Source: Sphingomonadales bacterium Ga0077557
Lineage (GTDB): Bacteria > Pseudomonadota > Alphaproteobacteria > Sphingomonadales > Sphingomonadaceae
Length of the DNA stretch: 64,000 bases
Direction of reading: 5' to 3'
Assembly (NCBI GenBank): GCA_001464615.1
Contig: LNFI01000010.1
Coordinates: 38,867 to 102,866 of the forward strand
Below are positions 7,884-28,372 of the stretch, piece after piece; the stretch's first letter is position 1, and the number at the start of each line of letters is the position of its first letter. Both the position numbers and the translations under genes were made by a program. The notes below the pieces were generated by a model, which saw nothing but the letters and a program-made list of their open reading frames with translations, had not been told where the DNA came from and did not search any database.

Positions 7884-9164
7884 ATGGCATGGTATCGGAC
7901 AGGAGCAATCGCGGTAACGAATGGCAGCGCCACCGTCACCGGCACCGGCACGGCATTTAACAACAATGTGCAGCCAGGTCACGCGATCAACCTGCCGGAT
8001 GGCCGCGTCTATGAGGTGCTGGAAGTTGTTTCCAACACCGTGATCACGCTGGGCTCGAATTATCTTGGTTCCACCGCGTCGGGCCAAACCTATTCAATCC
8101 AACCCAACCAGGGCTTCGCGCAATCGGCATTTTCTAAGCTGTCGGATTTGCTCGCGCAGTTCGCAAACTATGTGACGACCGCGCTGGCGGGGAAGTTTGG
8201 CGACGGCACGGTTGGGGCGCCGGGGGTCAGCTTTGCCGCCGAGCAGGCGACCGGGCTTTACCGCAAAGCACCTGGCGAGTTGGGCATTGCTGTTGGTGGC
8301 GCCGAAGTTGGCTCGATGACCAATGCGCTAGTGAGAATTCTGCGCCCGCAAACCGTCGTGCGCGCCGTCACTGACTTTTCCGATTCTATCTTTATTCTCA
8401 ACAGCGCGACGTCCAGCGGCGCTTGGGCGCGCATAGGCTTTCAGGCTGGTACGAAATATGGCTACGCGGCAATGTCTGATGGCGGCGATATGCTTCTTGC
8501 CAACACCTTCGCCGGGGCAGTGGTGATTTCCACAAACAACGCCGAAGCGCTGCGCATCGCCAGCGGAGGCGCAGTTTCAATCGCATCTGCCACAACGGCT
8601 TCGGCCGCTAACCTGTTTCAGTCGTCCAGCGGAACGGCTATTTTGCGGTCCACCTCGTCGCGGCGTTACAAGCACCGCATTGAAGATATTGAACCGCAAT
8701 ATGCCGACAAGGTGCTTGAGTTCCGCTCCAGATGGTATCAGTCGAACGCCGAGGCCGACAATCCAGAGCACGGATTTTGGGGCTTCGTTGCGGAAGAAGT
8801 CGCTGAGATCGATCCGCGCCTTGTGCATTTTGCCTATCTCGACAGCGATTATGATCAAGTCGAAGTGGAGCCGGCGCGCGACGCGGTGTTCGATGATGTA
8901 GCGGTGGAGATTGCACCCGCCACGCTTACCAGCCCGGCGCGTTACCAAATTCAGCGGGTGCAGGTCGCTCCCGCCCGCCCGCCAAGATACGAACGGCGGC
9001 TGAAGGAGGGGGCTGAGAAGGTGCCGGATGGCGTTCAATATGAGCGTGTCTGCGTGCTGTTGCTCGACGTGGTGAAGCGGGAAAAGACGGCGCGGCTATC
9101 TCTTGAGACGCGATTTGCGCAACTTGAGGCGCGCGTTGCTGAGATGGAGGCGGGCAATGCCTGA
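7884..9164 (+). CDS. Tail fibre with C-terminal intramolecular chaperone (peptidase S74) domain
   Basis: N-terminal WYRTGAIAVTNGSATVTGTGT, GDGTVGAPGVSF fibre motif; C-terminal SSRRYKHRIEDI...GFVAEEV...VQYERV plus coiled coil. Confidence 0.85.
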   Translation: MAWYRTGAIAVTNGSATVTGTGTAFNNNVQPGHAINLPDGRVYEVLEVVSNTVITLGSNYLGSTASGQTYSIQPNQGFAQSAFSKLSDLLAQFANYVTTALAGKFGDGTVGAPGVSFAAEQATGLYRKAPGELGIAVGGAEVGSMTNALVRILRPQTVVRAVTDFSDSIFILNSATSSGAWARIGFQAGTKYGYAAMSDGGDMLLANTFAGAVVISTNNAEALRIASGGAVSIASATTASAANLFQSSSGTAILRSTSSRRYKHRIEDIEPQYADKVLEFRSRWYQSNAEADNPEHGFWGFVAEEVAEIDPRLVHFAYLDSDYDQVEVEPARDAVFDDVAVEIAPATLTSPARYQIQRVQVAPARPPRYERRLKEGAEKVPDGVQYERVCVLLLDVVKREKTARLSLETRFAQLEARVAEMEAGNA

Positions 9165-9216
9165 TCCGATGCCGCCGATCGATTATATGGGGCCGCATGG
9201 GGCCAACACAGGGTGA
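9157..9216 (+). CDS. 19-aa mini-ORF bridging the tail fibre stop and the next start
   Basis: SD GGAGG (9146-9150) 6 nt before ATG; MPDPMPPIDYMGPHGANTG*; its TGA overlaps GTG at 9213. Confidence 0.4.
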   Translation: MPDPMPPIDYMGPHGANTG

Positions 9217-9584
9217 CCGCCGTTGACCCCCTTTATGCCCAATGGTTGATGGACGATGGATATCGGCAGGTGTCTACCGATGCCACGTTGCAAGCGCGGT
9301 GGGGCGCGCGTGCCCAAACCACAGAGCGCCTGACGACGATCGCCGAGCGGGCAGACGCCGTGACAGAGGCCGCGCGCCAGATCGCGTTCCTGGGCGGCAG
9401 CGGCCCGCTGGTGATTGAGGAGCATTCGCTGTTGGGTGAATGGGCGCCCTATCTTGGCCAAGTGATCACCGTGTCGATCGACCGGCTGGGCTATGATGCT
9501 GGCTTGAACGTCTTTGTCATCGGGGCGGCTGACGAAGCCAGCACGGGCACTTCGACAGTCACTGTCGTGCGGAGATTGACATGA
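9213..9584 (+). CDS. Phage tail protein (resembles C-terminal part of a hub protein)
   Basis: AVTEAARQIAFL...LGQVITVSIDRLGYDAGLNVFVIG; coupled to the next gene by ATGA. Confidence 0.6.
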   Translation: MTAVDPLYAQWLMDDGYRQVSTDATLQARWGARAQTTERLTTIAERADAVTEAARQIAFLGGSGPLVIEEHSLLGEWAPYLGQVITVSIDRLGYDAGLNVFVIGAADEASTGTSTVTVVRRLT

Positions 9585-10351
9585 GCAACGTCCTGATCCT
9601 GTCCCCGGCGCCGATCGCAGCGATTGCCGCGTCGCGGGGGAGCGGGGTGGCCAATCTGCTCACGCGATCACCCAAGGAAGTTTGGGCGGACAATGCTGTT
9701 GGCTCGGCGGCATCGATCGACATCGATCTTGGGGCGGTAACGTCGATCGACACGGTGTATCTCGGCTATGTGTCGCCAGCGGCTGCCGCCGCCACCTGGA
9801 CGATCACGGGTGGAACGGGGGGCTATACCGAAAGCTTGATCAAGGCTTCGGGGCCGCTGCGGGCGATCGATACGGCGACGCGCGCGCCTGCCCGAACGCA
9901 TGCGTTCTGGACAGGCGGGGCAGTGAATGTGCGCTATATCCGGCTTTCCATCACACAGCCTGCTGGCAGCGCCCCCCTGCGGGCTGGTGTTGCGATGGTC
10001 GGCCGAGCGTGGCGGCCGACGTTCAACATGGAATTTGGCGCTGGTCGGCGCATCATCGATACCGGCACGGTTGCGGCGTTGCCCGATGGTGGCTTTGGCA
10101 CGATCGAGGGCGTGCGCAAGCGGGAATTCAACTGGAGCCTGGGTGACCTCTCGCGCGATGAAACCGACGCGCTTGATGACCTGTTGGGCGATCATGGGGA
10201 AACGATTCCGCTGCTTGTGGTGGAGGACCCCGATGCCACCACCGGGCAACGCGCGCGCATCCATTACGGCCTGTTTGTTGCCCTGAAAGCCTTTGAGCGT
10301 TCAAACCCGGCGCAGACGAAGTGGCAGTTCACTTTTGAGGAATGGGTGTGA
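9581..10351 (+). CDS. Phage distal-tail-like protein
   Basis: 256 aa; RYIRLSI, PTFNMEFG, REFNWSLGDL, VVEDPD, WQFTFEEW motifs. Confidence 0.6.
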   Translation: MSNVLILSPAPIAAIAASRGSGVANLLTRSPKEVWADNAVGSAASIDIDLGAVTSIDTVYLGYVSPAAAAATWTITGGTGGYTESLIKASGPLRAIDTATRAPARTHAFWTGGAVNVRYIRLSITQPAGSAPLRAGVAMVGRAWRPTFNMEFGAGRRIIDTGTVAALPDGGFGTIEGVRKREFNWSLGDLSRDETDALDDLLGDHGETIPLLVVEDPDATTGQRARIHYGLFVALKAFERSNPAQTKWQFTFEEWV

Positions 10352-10399
10352 CGGCCGCAACGTGATCGATTGATTTCCCCGTCGAAAAAGGCGGGGGCA

Positions 10400-10497
10400 A
10401 AGGGCGCGCCAACGCCCTTCACGCAGGAGGAACCCTGCACCTCAGGCGCCAGCTGGCCGCCGTCGATCCCCGCCACCGGGCACCCCGGTGGTGTGGG
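10400..10497 (+). promoter_or_regulatory. Multi-hairpin structured leader upstream of the methylase
   Basis: AAGGGCG-cgccaa-CGCCCTT (10400-10419), GCAGG-aggaac-CCTGC (10423-10438), CCACCGGG-cac-CCCGGTGG (10473-10491). Confidence 0.5.
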
Positions 10498-23510: not shown

Positions 23511-23661
23511 GATGCCCCCTCTTGCTTTCCTTGGCCCCTCGATCCCGATCGAGCGCCCTAATCTGCCAAATATCTATTGATTTGATGGGAATTCGATCAC
23601 TGGCTGATCTTGAGCGCGGGAAAGAGAAAATTTCTTGCCGCGAGAATCTGTGCAATCGCCT

Positions 23662-23689
23662 CTTGAACCAGCGACCAACCGCCCCAAAT
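23662..23689 (+). promoter_or_regulatory. Probable RpoH (sigma32) promoter
   Basis: CTTGAA-N14-CCCCAAAT upstream of the small heat-shock gene. Confidence 0.6.
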
Positions 23690-23694
23690 TCGCG

Positions 23695-23795
23695 GTCGTA
23701 CGGTGCCTATGGGGCCGTACCGACAACGGTGTCGCGCATTGGCGGGCACCGGAATCGACGTTCATCTTGCTCAAAAAAAAGAGGATTTGAAAATG
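23695..23795 (+). ncRNA. ROSE-type RNA thermometer (cis-regulatory 5' UTR)
   Basis: Two upstream hairpins plus AUCUUGCUC-A8-GAGGAU, with the UUGCU signature pairing the SD. Confidence 0.8.
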
Positions 23796-24254
23796 CGTCA
23801 GTTTGATTTGACCCCCTACCGCCGCTCGGCGATTGGCTTTGACCGGCTTTTCGACATGCTCGAAACCAATGCGCGCCAGACGACGTCTGAGAATTATCCG
23901 CCCTTCAATCTCGAACGGCTCGCTGATGATCGATATCGGATCACGCTTGCTGTCGCAGGGTTTGCCCGTGACGATATCGAGATTGTCGCCCAGCAGAATC
24001 TGCTGGTGATCAAGGGCAAGAAGGAAGACGTGACCGAGGATCGCGCCTTTCTGCATCTCGGCATTGCCAATCGCAGCTTCGAACGCCGCTTTGAACTCGC
24101 CGATTTCGTGCGGGTCGATGATGCGCGGCTCAACGACGGGCTGCTGACGATCGATCTGCTGCGCGAAGTGCCTGAGGCGATGAAGCCGAAGACCATCGCG
24201 ATCAAGTCAGGCGCACCGCTACAGGTGATCAAGGAAGACAGCGTGGCCGCCTGA
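23793..24254 (+). CDS. ibpA: Small heat shock protein Hsp20
   Basis: MRQFDLTPYRRSAIGFDRLFD, YPPFN, LAVAGF, GIANRSFERRF, GLLTIDL. Confidence 0.93.
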   Translation: MRQFDLTPYRRSAIGFDRLFDMLETNARQTTSENYPPFNLERLADDRYRITLAVAGFARDDIEIVAQQNLLVIKGKKEDVTEDRAFLHLGIANRSFERRFELADFVRVDDARLNDGLLTIDLLREVPEAMKPKTIAIKSGAPLQVIKEDSVAA

Positions 24255-24351
24255 TTGCGGCGACGGGTTGGTTGCGGTGGTGATGCTGTGCGGCCTGCCC
24301 TGCGCTGTGTCGCGGTGACCCAGCACTAGCCTGTCGTAAACACGTAAAATG

Positions 24352-24384
24352 GGTGCCCGGACATCACAGTTCGGGCACCTTTTT
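24352..24384 (+). terminator. Rho-independent terminator
   Basis: GGTGCCCGGAC-atcaca-GTTCGGGCACC-TTTTT. Confidence 0.75.
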
Positions 24385-24576
24385 GGCCCAAGAGGCTCCA
24401 AATCTACCTAAACATGCGGGCGAGCGACTGCGTCCTGTCTGGCGCCGATTCAGCGACATCGCCCCCGCCGATCCAGAGTCGGCACCTTGCAATATCTTCT
24501 TGGCTGACGTCATTTGTCGCCAATGCTGCGGAGACCTTTGGTCGCGCGCAGCGGCGGGGCGAGGCGAGCGATCATC

Positions 24577-26007
24577 ATGGGCGATTCCGGCAAGTCATCA
24601 CGATCCGTCGCGGCAGGGCCATTGCGGCGCGTGAACCGCGGGATCATGTCGGTATGGATGGGCTGGGGCACGCGCGTACTGCCCTTTGCCGATGTCGCGA
24701 CCGAGGATCTGCCGCTGTCCCGACTGCTGCGGTTGTCGCTAATCCAGGTGTCAGTCGGGGTATCGCTGGTGTTGCTGGCGGGGACGCTCAACCGGGTGAT
24801 GATCGTCGAACTGGGCGTGCCGGCCACGCTGGTTGGCGTGATGCTGGCGCTGCCGCTGCTCTTCGCGCCGTTCCGCGCCCTTATTGGGTTTCGATCGGAT
24901 CGGCACCAATCTGCACTGGGCTGGCGGCGCGTGCCCTTTATCTTTCGCGGCACGATGCTGCAATTTGGCGGGCTGGCGATGATGCCCTTTGCCCTGCTGG
25001 TGCTGGCGGGCGCGGGGCAATCGAGCACGGCCCCTGCCTGGATCGGCCAAGCGGCTGCCGGCATTGCTTTCCTGCTCGTTGGCGCAGGCGTGCATATCAC
25101 CCAAACCGTCGGGCTCGCGCTCGCGACCGATCAAGCCCCTGAATCGGCGCATCCCAACATTGTCGGGCTGATGTATTCAATGCTGCTGATCGGCATGATC
25201 TTGGCGGCCCTGCTCTTTGGCGCGGCGCTGGCGGATTTCTCGCACGGTCGGCTGATCCAGGTGATCCAGGGGACGGCGGTGATCACCTTCGTCCTCAATG
25301 TCTCGGCCCTTTGGAAGCAAGAGGCGCGCAATACCAGCCGACCGGAAGAGGTCGAGCGGACCTTTCAGCAATCCTGGGCGCTTTATGCCGCCGAAGCGCA
25401 TGCAGTACGGCGGCTGGTTGCCGTAGCCCTTGGCACGCTGGCGTTCAGCATGGAGGATATCCTGCTTGAACCGTATGGCGGGCAGATACTTGGGCTGGGT
25501 GTGGGCGATACGACCAAGCTGACGGCAACCTTTGCTGGTGGCGGGCTGCTTGGCTTTGCGCTTGCCTCGCGCATCCTCAGCCGCGGCTTCGATCCGTTTC
25601 GCATGGCGACAATCGGCGCGCTGATCGGCATCCCAGCCTTTGTGATGGTGATCGCATCGGCACCCCTTCAACAGGTGCCAATGTTTGTCGCTGGCGTCGC
25701 GCTGATCGGCTTTGGCGGCGGGCTGTTCGGCCATGGCACGCTGACTGCGACAATGAACTATGCGCCCAAGGATCAGATTGGGCTCGCGCTGGGCAGCTGG
25801 GGCGCGGCACAGGCGACGGCCGCAGGCGTTGGCGCGGCGCTGGGCGGATTCTTGCGCGATGTCGTCAATCCCGCAGGCCTCGCGCTGCCATGGCAACCGG
25901 CAGCGACGGGCTACATCCTTGTCTATGCGCTGGAGATCATGTTGCTCATCGCCACGCTGGCCACGATGCTGCCCCTTCTCCACTCGGGACGCCGGGCACC
26001 CGCATAG
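24577..26007 (+). CDS. pucC: PucC/LhaA-family (BCD) MFS light-harvesting assembly factor
   Basis: LPFADVATEDLPLSRLLRLSL, GTLNRVMIVEL, GFRSD...LGWRRVP, DILLEPYGG, LGSWGAAQATA; start uncertain (24514/24577/24646). Confidence 0.92.
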   Translation: MGDSGKSSRSVAAGPLRRVNRGIMSVWMGWGTRVLPFADVATEDLPLSRLLRLSLIQVSVGVSLVLLAGTLNRVMIVELGVPATLVGVMLALPLLFAPFRALIGFRSDRHQSALGWRRVPFIFRGTMLQFGGLAMMPFALLVLAGAGQSSTAPAWIGQAAAGIAFLLVGAGVHITQTVGLALATDQAPESAHPNIVGLMYSMLLIGMILAALLFGAALADFSHGRLIQVIQGTAVITFVLNVSALWKQEARNTSRPEEVERTFQQSWALYAAEAHAVRRLVAVALGTLAFSMEDILLEPYGGQILGLGVGDTTKLTATFAGGGLLGFALASRILSRGFDPFRMATIGALIGIPAFVMVIASAPLQQVPMFVAGVALIGFGGGLFGHGTLTATMNYAPKDQIGLALGSWGAAQATAAGVGAALGGFLRDVVNPAGLALPWQPAATGYILVYALEIMLLIATLATMLPLLHSGRRAPA

Positions 26008-26009
26008 AG

Positions 26010-26044
26010 AAAGGGGCAGGGATGCTGGATCCCTGCCCCTTTTT
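26010..26044. terminator. Bidirectional terminator between pucC and pucA
   Basis: AAAGGGGCAGGGAT-gctgg-ATCCCTGCCCCTTT(TT), perfect 14-bp stem. Confidence 0.88.
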
Positions 26045-26082
26045 CATTTCAGCCTTATGCACTGCCCGAGCAGCGCCGAAGA

Positions 26083-26331
26083 CTATTTCGCTGCTTCGTT
26101 CGTTGCCATGGCATCGGCGGCCGGTGCCATTTCTGCTGCTGGTTCAGCAGCAGCTGGTGCAGCAGCAGCCGGAGCTTCTACTTTAGATGCACCCTGCCAG
26201 AATGAATCGACCCATGTCGTATGCGTCATGATCGACGCATGAACGAGCAGTGATGCCGTCACAAAGGCAATGAAGAACAGCGGTAGACCGACATTAGGGC
26301 TGACATACAGCCAGATACGTCCTTCTTTCAT
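26083..26331 (-). CDS. pucA: LH2 light-harvesting alpha polypeptide with Ala/Pro/Glu-rich C-terminal tail
   Basis: MKEGRIWLYVSPNVGLP...LLVH(31)ASIMTHTTW(40)VDSFWQG aligns with MNQGKIWTVVNP..G.P...VH....HTTW..YWQG. Confidence 0.93.
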   Translation of the reverse strand: MKEGRIWLYVSPNVGLPLFFIAFVTASLLVHASIMTHTTWVDSFWQGASKVEAPAAAAPAAAEPAAEMAPAADAMATNEAAK

Positions 26332-26346
26332 CGTCAGTCCTCCCGA

Positions 26347-26502
26347 TCAATGCAGCCAAGGGGAATAGATAAATGCCAGAACATGCGCGGCGATCGCGAT
26401 GCCAGCATAAATCCGGGTCCCCCACATCAGGCCTTCTTGAATTTCTTCGGCCTGTTTTGGCGTGAGCCCGGTCGGATAGACCATGTCACTATCGTCTGCC
26501 AT
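26347..26502 (-). CDS. pucB: LH2 light-harvesting beta polypeptide (51 aa; absent from ORF track)
   Basis: Manual translation MADDSDMVYPTGLTPKQAEEIQEGLMWGTRIYAGIAIAAHVLAFIYSPWLH*; matches the PTGLT...GTRI....AH.LA..YSPWLH beta consensus. Confidence 0.93.
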   Translation of the reverse strand: MADDSDMVYPTGLTPKQAEEIQEGLMWGTRIYAGIAIAAHVLAFIYSPWLH

Positions 26503-26664
26503 TTTTTACCACCCTCTCTCGGGACATCAGACGGTCATTGTGCAGAAAGTGTCCCATCATCCAGCACGACCGAAAGGCGACCCGAAGGCCGTCATCCACA
26601 GATGCGATCGACGCCACGATATCGCCCGGCCAGCCCCGAAACGACCCGTACAAATCCGCACAAG

Positions 26665-26708
26665 TGTCTAGTTATCTTAACAATGGAAAGTGTCAATTCT
26701 TCGTGACG
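26665..26708. promoter_or_regulatory. Tandem PpsR/CrtJ operators overlapping the pucB promoter
   Basis: TGT-CTAGTTATCTTA-ACA (26665-26682), 8-bp spacer, TGT-CAATTCTTCGTG-ACG (26691-26708); minus-strand TTGACA at 26696-26691. Confidence 0.8.
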
Positions 26709-26737
26709 TTTTGGTGGCAGTCCAGCTGCCCCAATGA

Positions 26738-28372
26738 TCAGACGAGACGGCTCTGCCGGACGGCTGCGGCGATGAAGCTCGCGAACAGCGGGTGGGGATC
26801 GAACGGCTTGCTCTTCAGCTCAGGATGGAACTGTACGCCGACGAACCAGGGATGATCGGGGCGTTCGACGATCTCGGGGAGCATGCCATCGGGTGACATC
26901 CCCGAAAACACCAGGCCGCCCTTTTCAAGCATGTCCCGGTAGCCCGTGTTGACTTCATAGCGGTGGCGGTGGCGTTCGCTGATTTCCGCCGCACCATAGA
27001 TTGACGAGACAACGCTGTTGCCGTCGAGCCTGGCGGGATAGGCCCCCAACCGCATCGTCCCGCCGAGATCGCCGCCCTCCTCCCGCTCCTGCAGGCCGTC
27101 CGCGCTCATCCATTCGGTGATCATGCCGACAACGGGTTCAGCCGTCGGGCCGAATTCGGTCGAACTCGCATCGGCAACGCCGCCGAGGTCGCGCGCGCCT
27201 TCGATACAGGCCATCTGCATGCCGAAGCAGATGCCGAAATAGGGAATTTCACGTTCGCGCGCGAAGCGCACGCTGGCAATTTTGCCCTCCGCCCCACGCT
27301 CGCCGAACGCACCGGGGACAAGGATCGCATGCAGTGGCTCAAGCCGCGCGGCTACGTCGCTATCGGGTTGCTCGAACAGCTCGGCATCGATCCATTCGAT
27401 GTTGACCTTCACCCGATTGGCGATGCCGCCATGGACCAGCGCCTCGTTCAGCGACTTATAGGCATCCTGCAGGCCAACATATTTGCCAACCACCCCAACC
27501 GTCACTTCACCTTCGGGATTGGTTAGCCGGTCGACAATATTGGTCCAGCGCGACAAATCTGGCGCGCTACCGGGGACGATATCAAAAGCGCGCAGAACCT
27601 CTGAATCTAGCCCCTCCGCGTGATATTGCATCGGCACCGCATAGATGCTCGCGGCGTCGAGCGCGGGGATGACCGCTTCCTTGCGGACGTTGCAGAACAG
27701 CGCGATCTTCGCGCGGTCGCTCTCCGGCAGGGGATGCTCGCAACGACAGACGAGCACATCGGGCTGGACGCCCAGCGCGGCGAGTTCACGCACCGAATGC
27801 TGGGTCGGCTTGGTCTTCAGCTCACCCGCTGCGGCGATATACGGCACCAACGTCACATGGATGCTGACCGATTGGCCGCGCCCCAGATCATTCCGCAACT
27901 GGCGGATCGCCTCAATGAACGGCAGCGATTCGATATCGCCGACAGTGCCGCCAATCTCGCACAGCACAAAATCGACATCATCGGTCTGCGCCTGGGCGAA
28001 GGCCTTGATGGCGTCGGTCACGTGCGGAATTACTTGAACGGTCGCGCCCAGATAATCACCGCGCCGTTCGCGCTGAATGATCGTCTGATAGATTCGGCCA
28101 GAGGTGATATTGTCCGACTGGCGGCTCGGCACACCCGTGAACCGTTCATAATGGCCAAGATCGAGATCGGTCTCGGCACCGTCATCGGTCACATAGACTT
28201 CGCCGTGCTGATAGGGCGACATCGTGCCGGGATCGACGTTAAGATACGGATCGAACTTACGAATCCGAACGGAATAGCCCCGCGCCTGCAGCAAAGCGGC
28301 AAGGCTTGCCGCCATGAGACCCTTGCCAAGCGAGGAGACCACGCCGCCGGTGATGAAAATGAACCGCGCCAT
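26738..28372 (-). CDS. pyrG: CTP synthase
   Basis: [46 protein letters not shown]. Confidence 0.98.

Follow-up and report, generated by a model that had tools for sequence, protein, structure and literature searches.

How is the assembly factor of a light-harvesting antenna expressed when its gene runs against the genes of the antenna itself? The question is raised by a puc locus of Sphingomonadales bacterium Ga0077557, found in a stretch of 64,000 nucleotides of contig LNFI01000010.1 (positions 38,867 to 102,866; this whole stretch is called the window, and positions are counted from its first letter). Here pucB and pucA, assigned to the beta and alpha polypeptides of the peripheral antenna, light-harvesting complex 2 (LH2), lie on the minus strand and point at pucC, the gene for the LH2 assembly factor, on the plus strand. 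Our reading, to which we give a probability of roughly 0.8 on the sequence data, is that this is the working LH2 locus of an aerobic anoxygenic phototroph of the Sphingomonadaceae, that pucC belongs to an independent unit, and that the inverted layout arose once.

Genes were called from the list of open reading frames (ORFs) and a Pfam scan of the window. An earlier sequence-only reading had noticed that the ORF list lacks pucB, and indeed its product of 51 aa falls below the 60-aa threshold of that list. Coordinates and Pfam matches agree with the same reading on the opposed orientation of pucBA and pucC; the Pfam assignments of the flanking genes and a tblastn search of the window agree with its placing of the genes between ibpA and pyrG, away from other photosynthesis genes. 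In that search, 27 proteins of the photosynthesis gene cluster (PGC) found no other photosynthesis gene in the 64 kb, the sole match being due to the paralogy of lhaA and pucC. The puc cassette spans ~24385–26737, from the ibpA terminator to the pyrG stop codon, and pucC starts at the ATG at 24577, which is kept in relatives. The arrangement is not that of a canonical operon, as pucC is on the strand opposite to pucBA, converges with it and is parted from it by a terminator.

Identity of the antenna genes

The genome from which the window comes (3.57 Mb in 41 contigs) holds a complete PGC on contig C16. This contig carries bchP, bchG, bchF, bchN, bchB, bchH, bchL, bchM, bchZ, bchY, bchX, bchC, bchD and bchI, together with ppsR, lhaA, puhA, puhB, hemA, pufBALMC and crtD; ORFs around puf were assigned by NCBIfam, and ppsR matches TIGR02040 at 1.8e-123. 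The puf, bch, crt and ppsR genes that the sequence-only reading had proposed to seek elsewhere in the genome are all found there, in keeping with its proposal of a bacteriochlorophyll phototroph.

The pair beside pucC, on contig C10, lies outside the PGC, is distinct from the pufBA pair next to pufLM on C16, and is the single pucBA pair of the genome. Both polypeptides score above the cut-off of PF00556. Alignment with relatives places the ligand histidines (His31 of alpha and that of AAHVLAF in beta), the arginine of the beta GTR motif and alpha Trp40 where they are expected; PucA further has Phe44-Trp45 and a 33-aa C-terminal tail rich in Ala, Pro and Glu. The best matches of PucA in the PDB are the LH2 alpha chains 7zdi_A (1.9e-15) and 9lt4_A (1.3e-14), and those of PucB are the LH2 beta chain 9lt4_i (1.4e-19) and 7zdi (1.1e-15). 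For both proteins, nonameric LH2 complexes (7zdi, 9lt4, 7pbw, 1kzu and 1ijd) rank highest among the relatives of solved structure, and chains of light-harvesting complex 1 (LH1) score much lower. The entries 7zdi ('Light-harvesting protein') and 9lt4 ('B-800/814 alpha chain', 'B-800-850 beta chain') each contain nine chains of each subunit; a literature search on 9lt4 or a B800-814 structure returned nothing relevant. Compared with the 9lt4 alpha chain, which has Phe44-Phe45, PucA as known from its sequence has Phe44-Trp45 and a longer tail.

PucC is one of three members of its family in the genome, the other two being on C16, and is 55% identical to its PGC paralogue LhaA. In a tree it groups with PucC sequences linked to pucBA, with the LhaA of the same genome as the outgroup. 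Strong purifying selection acts on all three genes: in comparisons with six relatives, the ratio of nonsynonymous to synonymous substitution rates (dN/dS) is 0.06–0.20 for pucC and 0.04–0.17 for pucB, and lies within 0.04–0.20 for pucA, pucB and pucC together. In one relative (L095, G389:C1:2538638-2540032), the PucC orthologue has an in-frame TAG, which could mark a pseudogene or stem from an error in sequencing; pucBA is still present at this locus. A second antenna pair outside the PGC, an adjoining PucC orthologue and LH2 nonamers as the nearest solved relatives together argue for a peripheral antenna as the probable product, which is what the sequence-only reading had proposed.

The locus might instead be an orphan relic, or its product might be something other than a classical LH2, for instance an additional LH1-type ring or a concentric outer ring. 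The only NCBIfam match of PucB is the LH1 beta model pufB, at 55.5 bits and thus below the cut-off of 61; the usual EELH motif has lost its His in PucB; and the organism is often met in engineered waters that are dark. We nonetheless consider this very improbable, given the intact reading frames with dN/dS of 0.04–0.2, the transcription of pucBA in metatranscriptomes, a dedicated PucC orthologue next door, a separate pufBA pair that serves LH1, and the LH2 nonamers among the closest structures, which include 9lt4 with the same His-less beta motif.

That motif occupies PucB residues 19–27, where EEIQEGLMW replaces the usual EELHKH and both histidines are gone. It recurs across the related loci that share the convergent layout (described below), in Rhizobacter metagenome-assembled genomes (MAGs; EELQRGLVE) and in the beta chain of 9lt4 (EINDGLKW; motif EI(N/Q)xGLxWGTR). 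As to habitat, DNA near-identical to 24300–26800 (runs X1–X20) comes mostly from drinking-water, activated-carbon, biofilter, mine-drainage and freshwater metagenomes, sources that are largely dark and engineered despite the full photosynthetic apparatus.

The residue pair at alpha positions 44 and 45 sets the red band of LH2. For the Phe44-Trp45 of PucA we predict from the sequence a red band near 830–840 nm, the range of the described LH2-containing Sphingomonadales, rather than at 850 nm. Among loci with the convergent layout, Phe-Trp is found in the window, L010–L013, L016 and L017, Phe-Phe in L014, L015 and L020, and Tyr-Trp in L018, L019 and L024. This variation suggests spectral diversification over ~814, 835 and 850 nm within one gene lineage. 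Two Rhodoferax MAGs (L027 and L030) have PucA ORFs of ~133 aa, with Ala/Pro/Ser/Thr-rich C-terminal tails far above 33 aa.

Promoters, operators and the shared terminator

Several features of the sequence suggest that the two units answer to different signals. Upstream of pucB, CGT-N12-ACA at -206 and TGT-N12-ACA at -180 from the ATG are separated by 8 bp. A perfect TTGACA lies inside the upstream site, and a -10 box of the TAnnTT type follows 16 nt on, inside the downstream site. The half-sites and their positions are kept in L010–L020 while the N12 spacers vary; L014–L016 have two perfect PpsR-type sites, and L018 and L019 have three in a 26-bp register. With no more than one mismatch allowed, the 3.57 Mb contain exactly three such N8 tandems, all at photosynthesis promoters: the other two are upstream of bchC (C16:50210-50253) and in the crtF/crtD spacer (C16:51369-51412). 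All three read TGT..ACA-N8-TGT..ACG, and the bchC tandem has the same embedded TTGACA as that of pucB. Single TGT-N12-ACA sites are not enriched in the PGC (4 in 46 kb, equal to the genome average of 0.086/kb), so that only the tandem N8 design is informative. Tandem sites with 8–9 bp spacing, imperfect half-sites such as TGT-N12-ACG, and overlap with the -35 and -10 boxes are described for PpsR targets, including the Rubrivivax type (PMC4452267). With paired palindromes upstream and ppsR in the genome, pucBA is a probable member of the PpsR regulon.

The same tandem is present upstream of pucB in most canonical puc loci. Upstream of pucC, no PpsR-type tandem was found in ~55 loci of either layout, the best match having 2–5 mismatches; for the pucC of the window it has 4, and this gene thus falls outside the regulon by the measure that includes pucBA. 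It is preceded instead by the box CTTGCAA-N17-TCATTT, which occurs once in the window (0.04 expected) and once in the whole genome. A genome-wide search for a regulon sharing CTTGCAA-N15-18-TCATYT found the box to be unique and assigned no factor to it. Its -35 half resembles the sigma32-type box of ibpA, CTTGAA-N14-CCCCAAAT. We infer that pucBA lies in the PpsR regulon and that pucC has been physically removed from it in this clade.

Between the two genes, the 75-bp gap contains a 15-bp G+C stem bounded by AAA and TTTTT. The hairpin folds at about -43 kcal/mol on the plus strand (z -5.5) and at -46.5 on the minus strand (z -5.7), and none of 200 shuffled sequences was as stable. With its G+C-rich stem, 5' A-tract and 3' T-tract, it gives a U-run after the stem on both strands, the structure of a bidirectional terminator, and nearly all of the 21 convergent loci repeat the A-tract/stem/T-tract design with stems that differ in sequence. 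Fold energies, z-scores and conserved design thus support the bidirectional terminator that the sequence-only reading had seen here. A second stem-loop, after the pucA stop codon, is likely to be a 3' stabiliser of the pucBA mRNA.

In three mine-drainage metatranscriptomes (X25–X27), contigs that match the window at more than 99% identity cover 26082–26651 only, from the pucA stop codon to 146–149 nt upstream of the pucB ATG, and no contig covers pucC, ibpA or pyrG. The common 5' limit of these contigs, 26648–26651, falls ~10 nt short of the start that the -10 box predicts, which places the probable start of pucBA transcription at ~26660. A contig in run X27 ends at 26082, by the second stem-loop; contig ends at this position for pucBA, and at 26037 for pucC in run X28, hint at actual termination. 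Run X28 carries both a metagenomic and an RNA-Seq label and was therefore set aside as evidence. X25 and X26 (two of the three runs) also contain pufBA contigs from this strain, and there are no pufLM contigs; contigs of the antenna genes alone are the pattern expected of stable small antenna mRNAs. We regard the contigs as good evidence for a discrete pucBA RNA unit and the missing pucC contig as weak evidence.

The following scheme would account for these features. A short and abundant pucBA mRNA would start just 3' of a sigma70-type promoter in which two PpsR palindromes overlie the -35 and -10 boxes, and would end at the pair formed by the second stem-loop and the terminator. Since the same operator design stands at bchC and at crtF/crtD, the LH2 apoproteins would be repressed and derepressed jointly with the pigment and core-complex genes. 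pucC would be transcribed from the opposite strand by its own promoter, which has no PpsR sites, and would end at the same bidirectional terminator; on this anatomy the assembly factor would come from an independent transcription unit. More tentatively, and with odds that we put well below even, a single ancient inversion in the Sphingomonadaceae freed pucC from a PpsR-gated operon, so that the assembly factor became independent and perhaps constitutive and the apoproteins alone were gated by oxygen and light. On that reading, head-on transcription into the shared terminator might also impose a negative coupling between the abundant pucBA mRNA and pucC.

A different view is that pucC is still co-regulated with pucBA, either by way of regulators besides PpsR or by read-through and antisense effects at the shared terminator, the inversion having no regulatory meaning. 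The case for separate control consists of sequence motifs, the conserved box 5' of pucC has no second copy in the genome that might link it to a factor, and the X28 contigs, from a library of ambiguous nature, cover the 3' half of pucC as well as pucBA. Against this view stand the PpsR-type tandem, at pucB in most loci and at pucC in none, the pucBA contigs without pucC contigs in three metatranscriptomes, and a strong conserved terminator, and we judge it unlikely. The opposed units, the terminator, the tandem at pucB only, the separate pucC box and the pucBA-only RNA contigs instead favour the separate regulation that the sequence-only reading had put forward, the regulatory consequence itself being a matter of inference.

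Several points nevertheless weigh against a working LH2 locus with an independent pucC. For this organism it is read from sequence and RNA contigs, and the contigs are assembled from relatives more than 99% identical rather than from reads of this strain; nor is the absence of a pucC contig proof of low expression. The -10 box of this genome, TAACTA, lacks the final T that is conserved in relatives. In genus g19 and in L024 and L096, all with the convergent layout, no good PpsR tandem lies within 350 nt of pucB, so that not every member of the clade has the operator. A consensus scan of 24200–26800 for promoters and terminators called nothing and missed both hairpins, which took folding to reveal. 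Finally, pucC and pucBA could share other regulators (for example RegA, FnrL or light sensors) that are invisible to these scans. The features on which the argument draws are collected in Table 1.

Table 1. Features of the puc cassette and its flanks, in window coordinates.
Feature	Position	Strand	Description and basis
ibpA sigma32-like box	~23661-23690	+	CTTGAA-N14-CCCCAAAT; direct reading of the sequence
ibpA	23793-24254	+	Left flank of the insert; Hsp20 small heat-shock protein; Pfam HSP20 2.4e-18
ibpA intrinsic terminator	24351-24384	+	GGTGCCCG...CGGGCACC then TTTTT; left border of the puc insert; sequence reading
pucC promoter-like box	24486-24515	+	CTTGCAA-N17-TCATTT; 62-91 nt 5' of the pucC ATG; conserved in most close relatives
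pucC	24577-26007	+	LH2 assembly factor of the major facilitator superfamily (MFS) type, 476 aa; Pfam PUCC (PF03209) 3.2e-149, model positions 1-399/401
Bidirectional intrinsic terminator	26007-26046	both	AAA + GGGGCAGGGAT(C) stem + TTTTT; folding
Second stem-loop	26050-26085	-	Directly 3' of the pucA stop; folding; similar stem in close relatives
pucA	26083-26331	-	LH2 alpha polypeptide, 82 aa; Pfam LHC (PF00556) 8.6e-9
pucB	26347-26502	-	LH2 beta polypeptide, 51 aa; Pfam LHC (PF00556) 7.4e-8
pucBA 5' untranslated leader	26503-26660	-	~150-160 nt; GGGACAC...GTGTCCC stem just 5' of the ribosome-binding site; conserved blocks in alignment
Tandem PpsR-type operator	26665-26708	-	CGT-N12-ACA-N8-TGT-N12-ACA; overlaps TTGACA -35 (26691-26696) and TAACTA -10 (26669-26674)
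pyrG	26738-28372	-	Right flank; CTP synthase, same strand as pucBA; Pfam CTP_synth_N 3.7e-121

Distribution and history of the inverted layout

To place this layout among its relatives we used 80 loci encoding PucC relatives, from a scan of one genome per species, and further loci from 401 Sphingomonadales genomes. Convergent genes, with pucA and pucB 3' of pucC and on the opposite strand, are found in 21 of 21 loci of one PucC clade (the window, L010–L020, L024 and L094–L101), all of a single family (f1) and labelled Sphingomonas, Stakelama, Sphingomonadales or AAP81b at NCBI; the host of the window belongs to a genus-level group labelled Sphingomonas or Stakelama in these records. Outside the clade the canonical order pucB-pucA-pucC holds in 32 of 32 loci, which come from Rhizobacter, Rhodoferax, Rubrivivax, Roseiarcus, MAGs of Rhizobiales and Rhodospirillales, four other families of Sphingomonadales and one further f1 genus. 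On a PucC tree rooted with the LhaA of the same genome, the 21 loci form one clade (SH-aLRT 100) and the layout needs a single change, compared with a mean of 16.6 in shuffles; adjacency to pyrG is kept across the clade. On this tree, the inverted pucC is a single-origin character of a clade of Sphingomonadaceae. A PucC orthologue with pucBA is encoded by ~17 of the 401 sampled species genomes, or 17 of the 72 (24%) that have PGC hits. Two general statements of the sequence-only reading, that pucBAC is normally co-directional and that LH2 occurs in a minority of Sphingomonadales, therefore held up.

The spacer between ibpA and pyrG records the presence or absence of the cassette. In four congeners without puc, three of which possess a PGC, ibpA and pyrG converge at a distance of 106–152 bp with the ibpA terminator alone between them, and a hairpin equivalent to that terminator stands directly before the pyrG stop codon. 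When these empty-site spacers were compared with the window by blastn, only the ibpA and pyrG ends matched, with no scars, repeats or puc remnants.

Two histories could produce this pattern. Either the cassette is an ancestral feature that congeners have lost, or this lineage has recently gained it by horizontal transfer into the spacer between ibpA and pyrG. Several observations fit the latter. In the sampled genus, this genome alone of at least 28 has a PucC orthologue and seven others have a PGC; those lineages of the genus that have puc form two groups on a PyrG tree, with PGC-only genomes interleaved; L013 is nearer to the window in PyrG than in PucC; and the Rhizobiales MAGs that are sister to the convergent clade on the PucC tree imply that puc moved between orders at some point. 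(The alignment of the L013 pyrG, 8987-10449 in the MAG 'Sphingomonas sp. 32-62-10', is split over two frames, probably through a frameshift or an assembly error.) Yet the position beside pyrG and the inverted layout are both retained in lineages whose PyrG is only ~79–80% identical (L018–L020, L024 and L094), the PucC tree agrees broadly with the distances between PyrG sequences, and there are neither repeats, an integrase nor scars at the borders, nor remnants at the empty sites. The synonymous divergence (dS) of pucC also tracks that of the neighbouring pyrG pair by pair, although values of 0.7–1.4 are nearly saturated and hence weakly informative on the date of a transfer. A recent insertion thus appears rather doubtful, and we lean towards a cassette that has long stood beside pyrG and has repeatedly been lost in a clean manner.

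On such a history the inverted layout would have arisen once and been inherited beside pyrG across a family-level clade, and many congeners would have lost the cassette cleanly, leaving ibpA beside pyrG. The deeper origin of the genes is another matter. The sister of the convergent clade on the PucC tree is formed by Rhizobiales MAGs and not by the other Sphingomonadales families, whose PucC is non-sister, and that origin probably involved a transfer of puc between orders.

Relation to known puc loci and meaning for the family

The same three genes, for the beta and alpha polypeptides of LH2 and the MFS factor PucC, make up puc1BAC of Rhodobacter (Cereibacter) sphaeroides and are contained in pucBACDE of Rba. 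capsulatus. In Rhodobacter the 5' leader of puc is long and the pucBA mRNA is short and abundant, features to which the present locus bears a likeness, and the puc promoter carries PpsR/CrtJ palindromes (TGT-N12-ACA) as does the region upstream of pucB here. In both cases the genes lie outside the PGC (PMC4949548; PMC12654162). The present locus differs from Rhodobacter in that pucC is inverted with its own predicted promoter, and hence would not be co-transcribed with pucBA, in that a bidirectional terminator is common to both units, and in that pucDE are absent.

A closer match in sequence is found in Rubrivivax gelatinosus and related Burkholderiales (Rhizobacter, Rhodoferax), whose PucC is ~60–66% identical. 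PucA of this group has an Ala/Pro-rich C-terminal extension like that of PucA here; the extension is reportedly the subject of Steunou et al. 2004 (J Bacteriol 186:3143). Rhizobacter PucB shares with PucB here the Q-x-G-L that takes the place of the EELH motif. The gene order there is the co-directional pucB-pucA-pucC, and the host class differs.

Within the Sphingomonadales, spectra of the LH2 type are described for Sandarakinorhabdus limnophila (800/837 nm), Porphyrobacter (800/835), Erythromicrobium (800/832) and Polymorphobacter FW250 (800/850), which share with the host of the window their order and a minority trait (PMC12654162). Papers on these organisms give spectra or the PGC only; the genome note of Sandarakinorhabdus AAP62, for example, lists a PGC and no pucBA (PMC3587927). 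Most Sphingomonadales are without LH2, and puc lies outside the PGC (PMC12654162; PMC3176799); Sphingomonas AAP5, a well-studied phototroph, has no puc or LH2. In the literature that we searched, neither the inverted layout of pucC, nor its single origin, nor the split of promoters was found to be described.

Any genome of the clade, once annotated, shows the inverted pucC, which departs little from the canonical operon; the locus is a modest variant of a well-known system and not a new kind, and it does not change what is known of how LH2 works. Its interest lies in the lineage. LH2 is uncommon in the Sphingomonadales and in aerobic anoxygenic phototrophs generally, and one Sphingomonas-like lineage keeps an LH2 that is transcribed. 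In it, a rearrangement of single origin physically parts the assembly factor from apoprotein genes that are probably under PpsR control, and the cassette appears to have been cleanly lost many times. Convergent and canonical loci, with Tyr-Trp, Phe-Trp or Phe-Phe at alpha 44/45, offer a comparative system for the regulation of LH2 assembly and for spectral tuning. If pucC indeed lies outside PpsR gating, the clade would be a natural experiment on the amount of PucC that LH2 needs, with a regulatory design that has not been described for puc genes.

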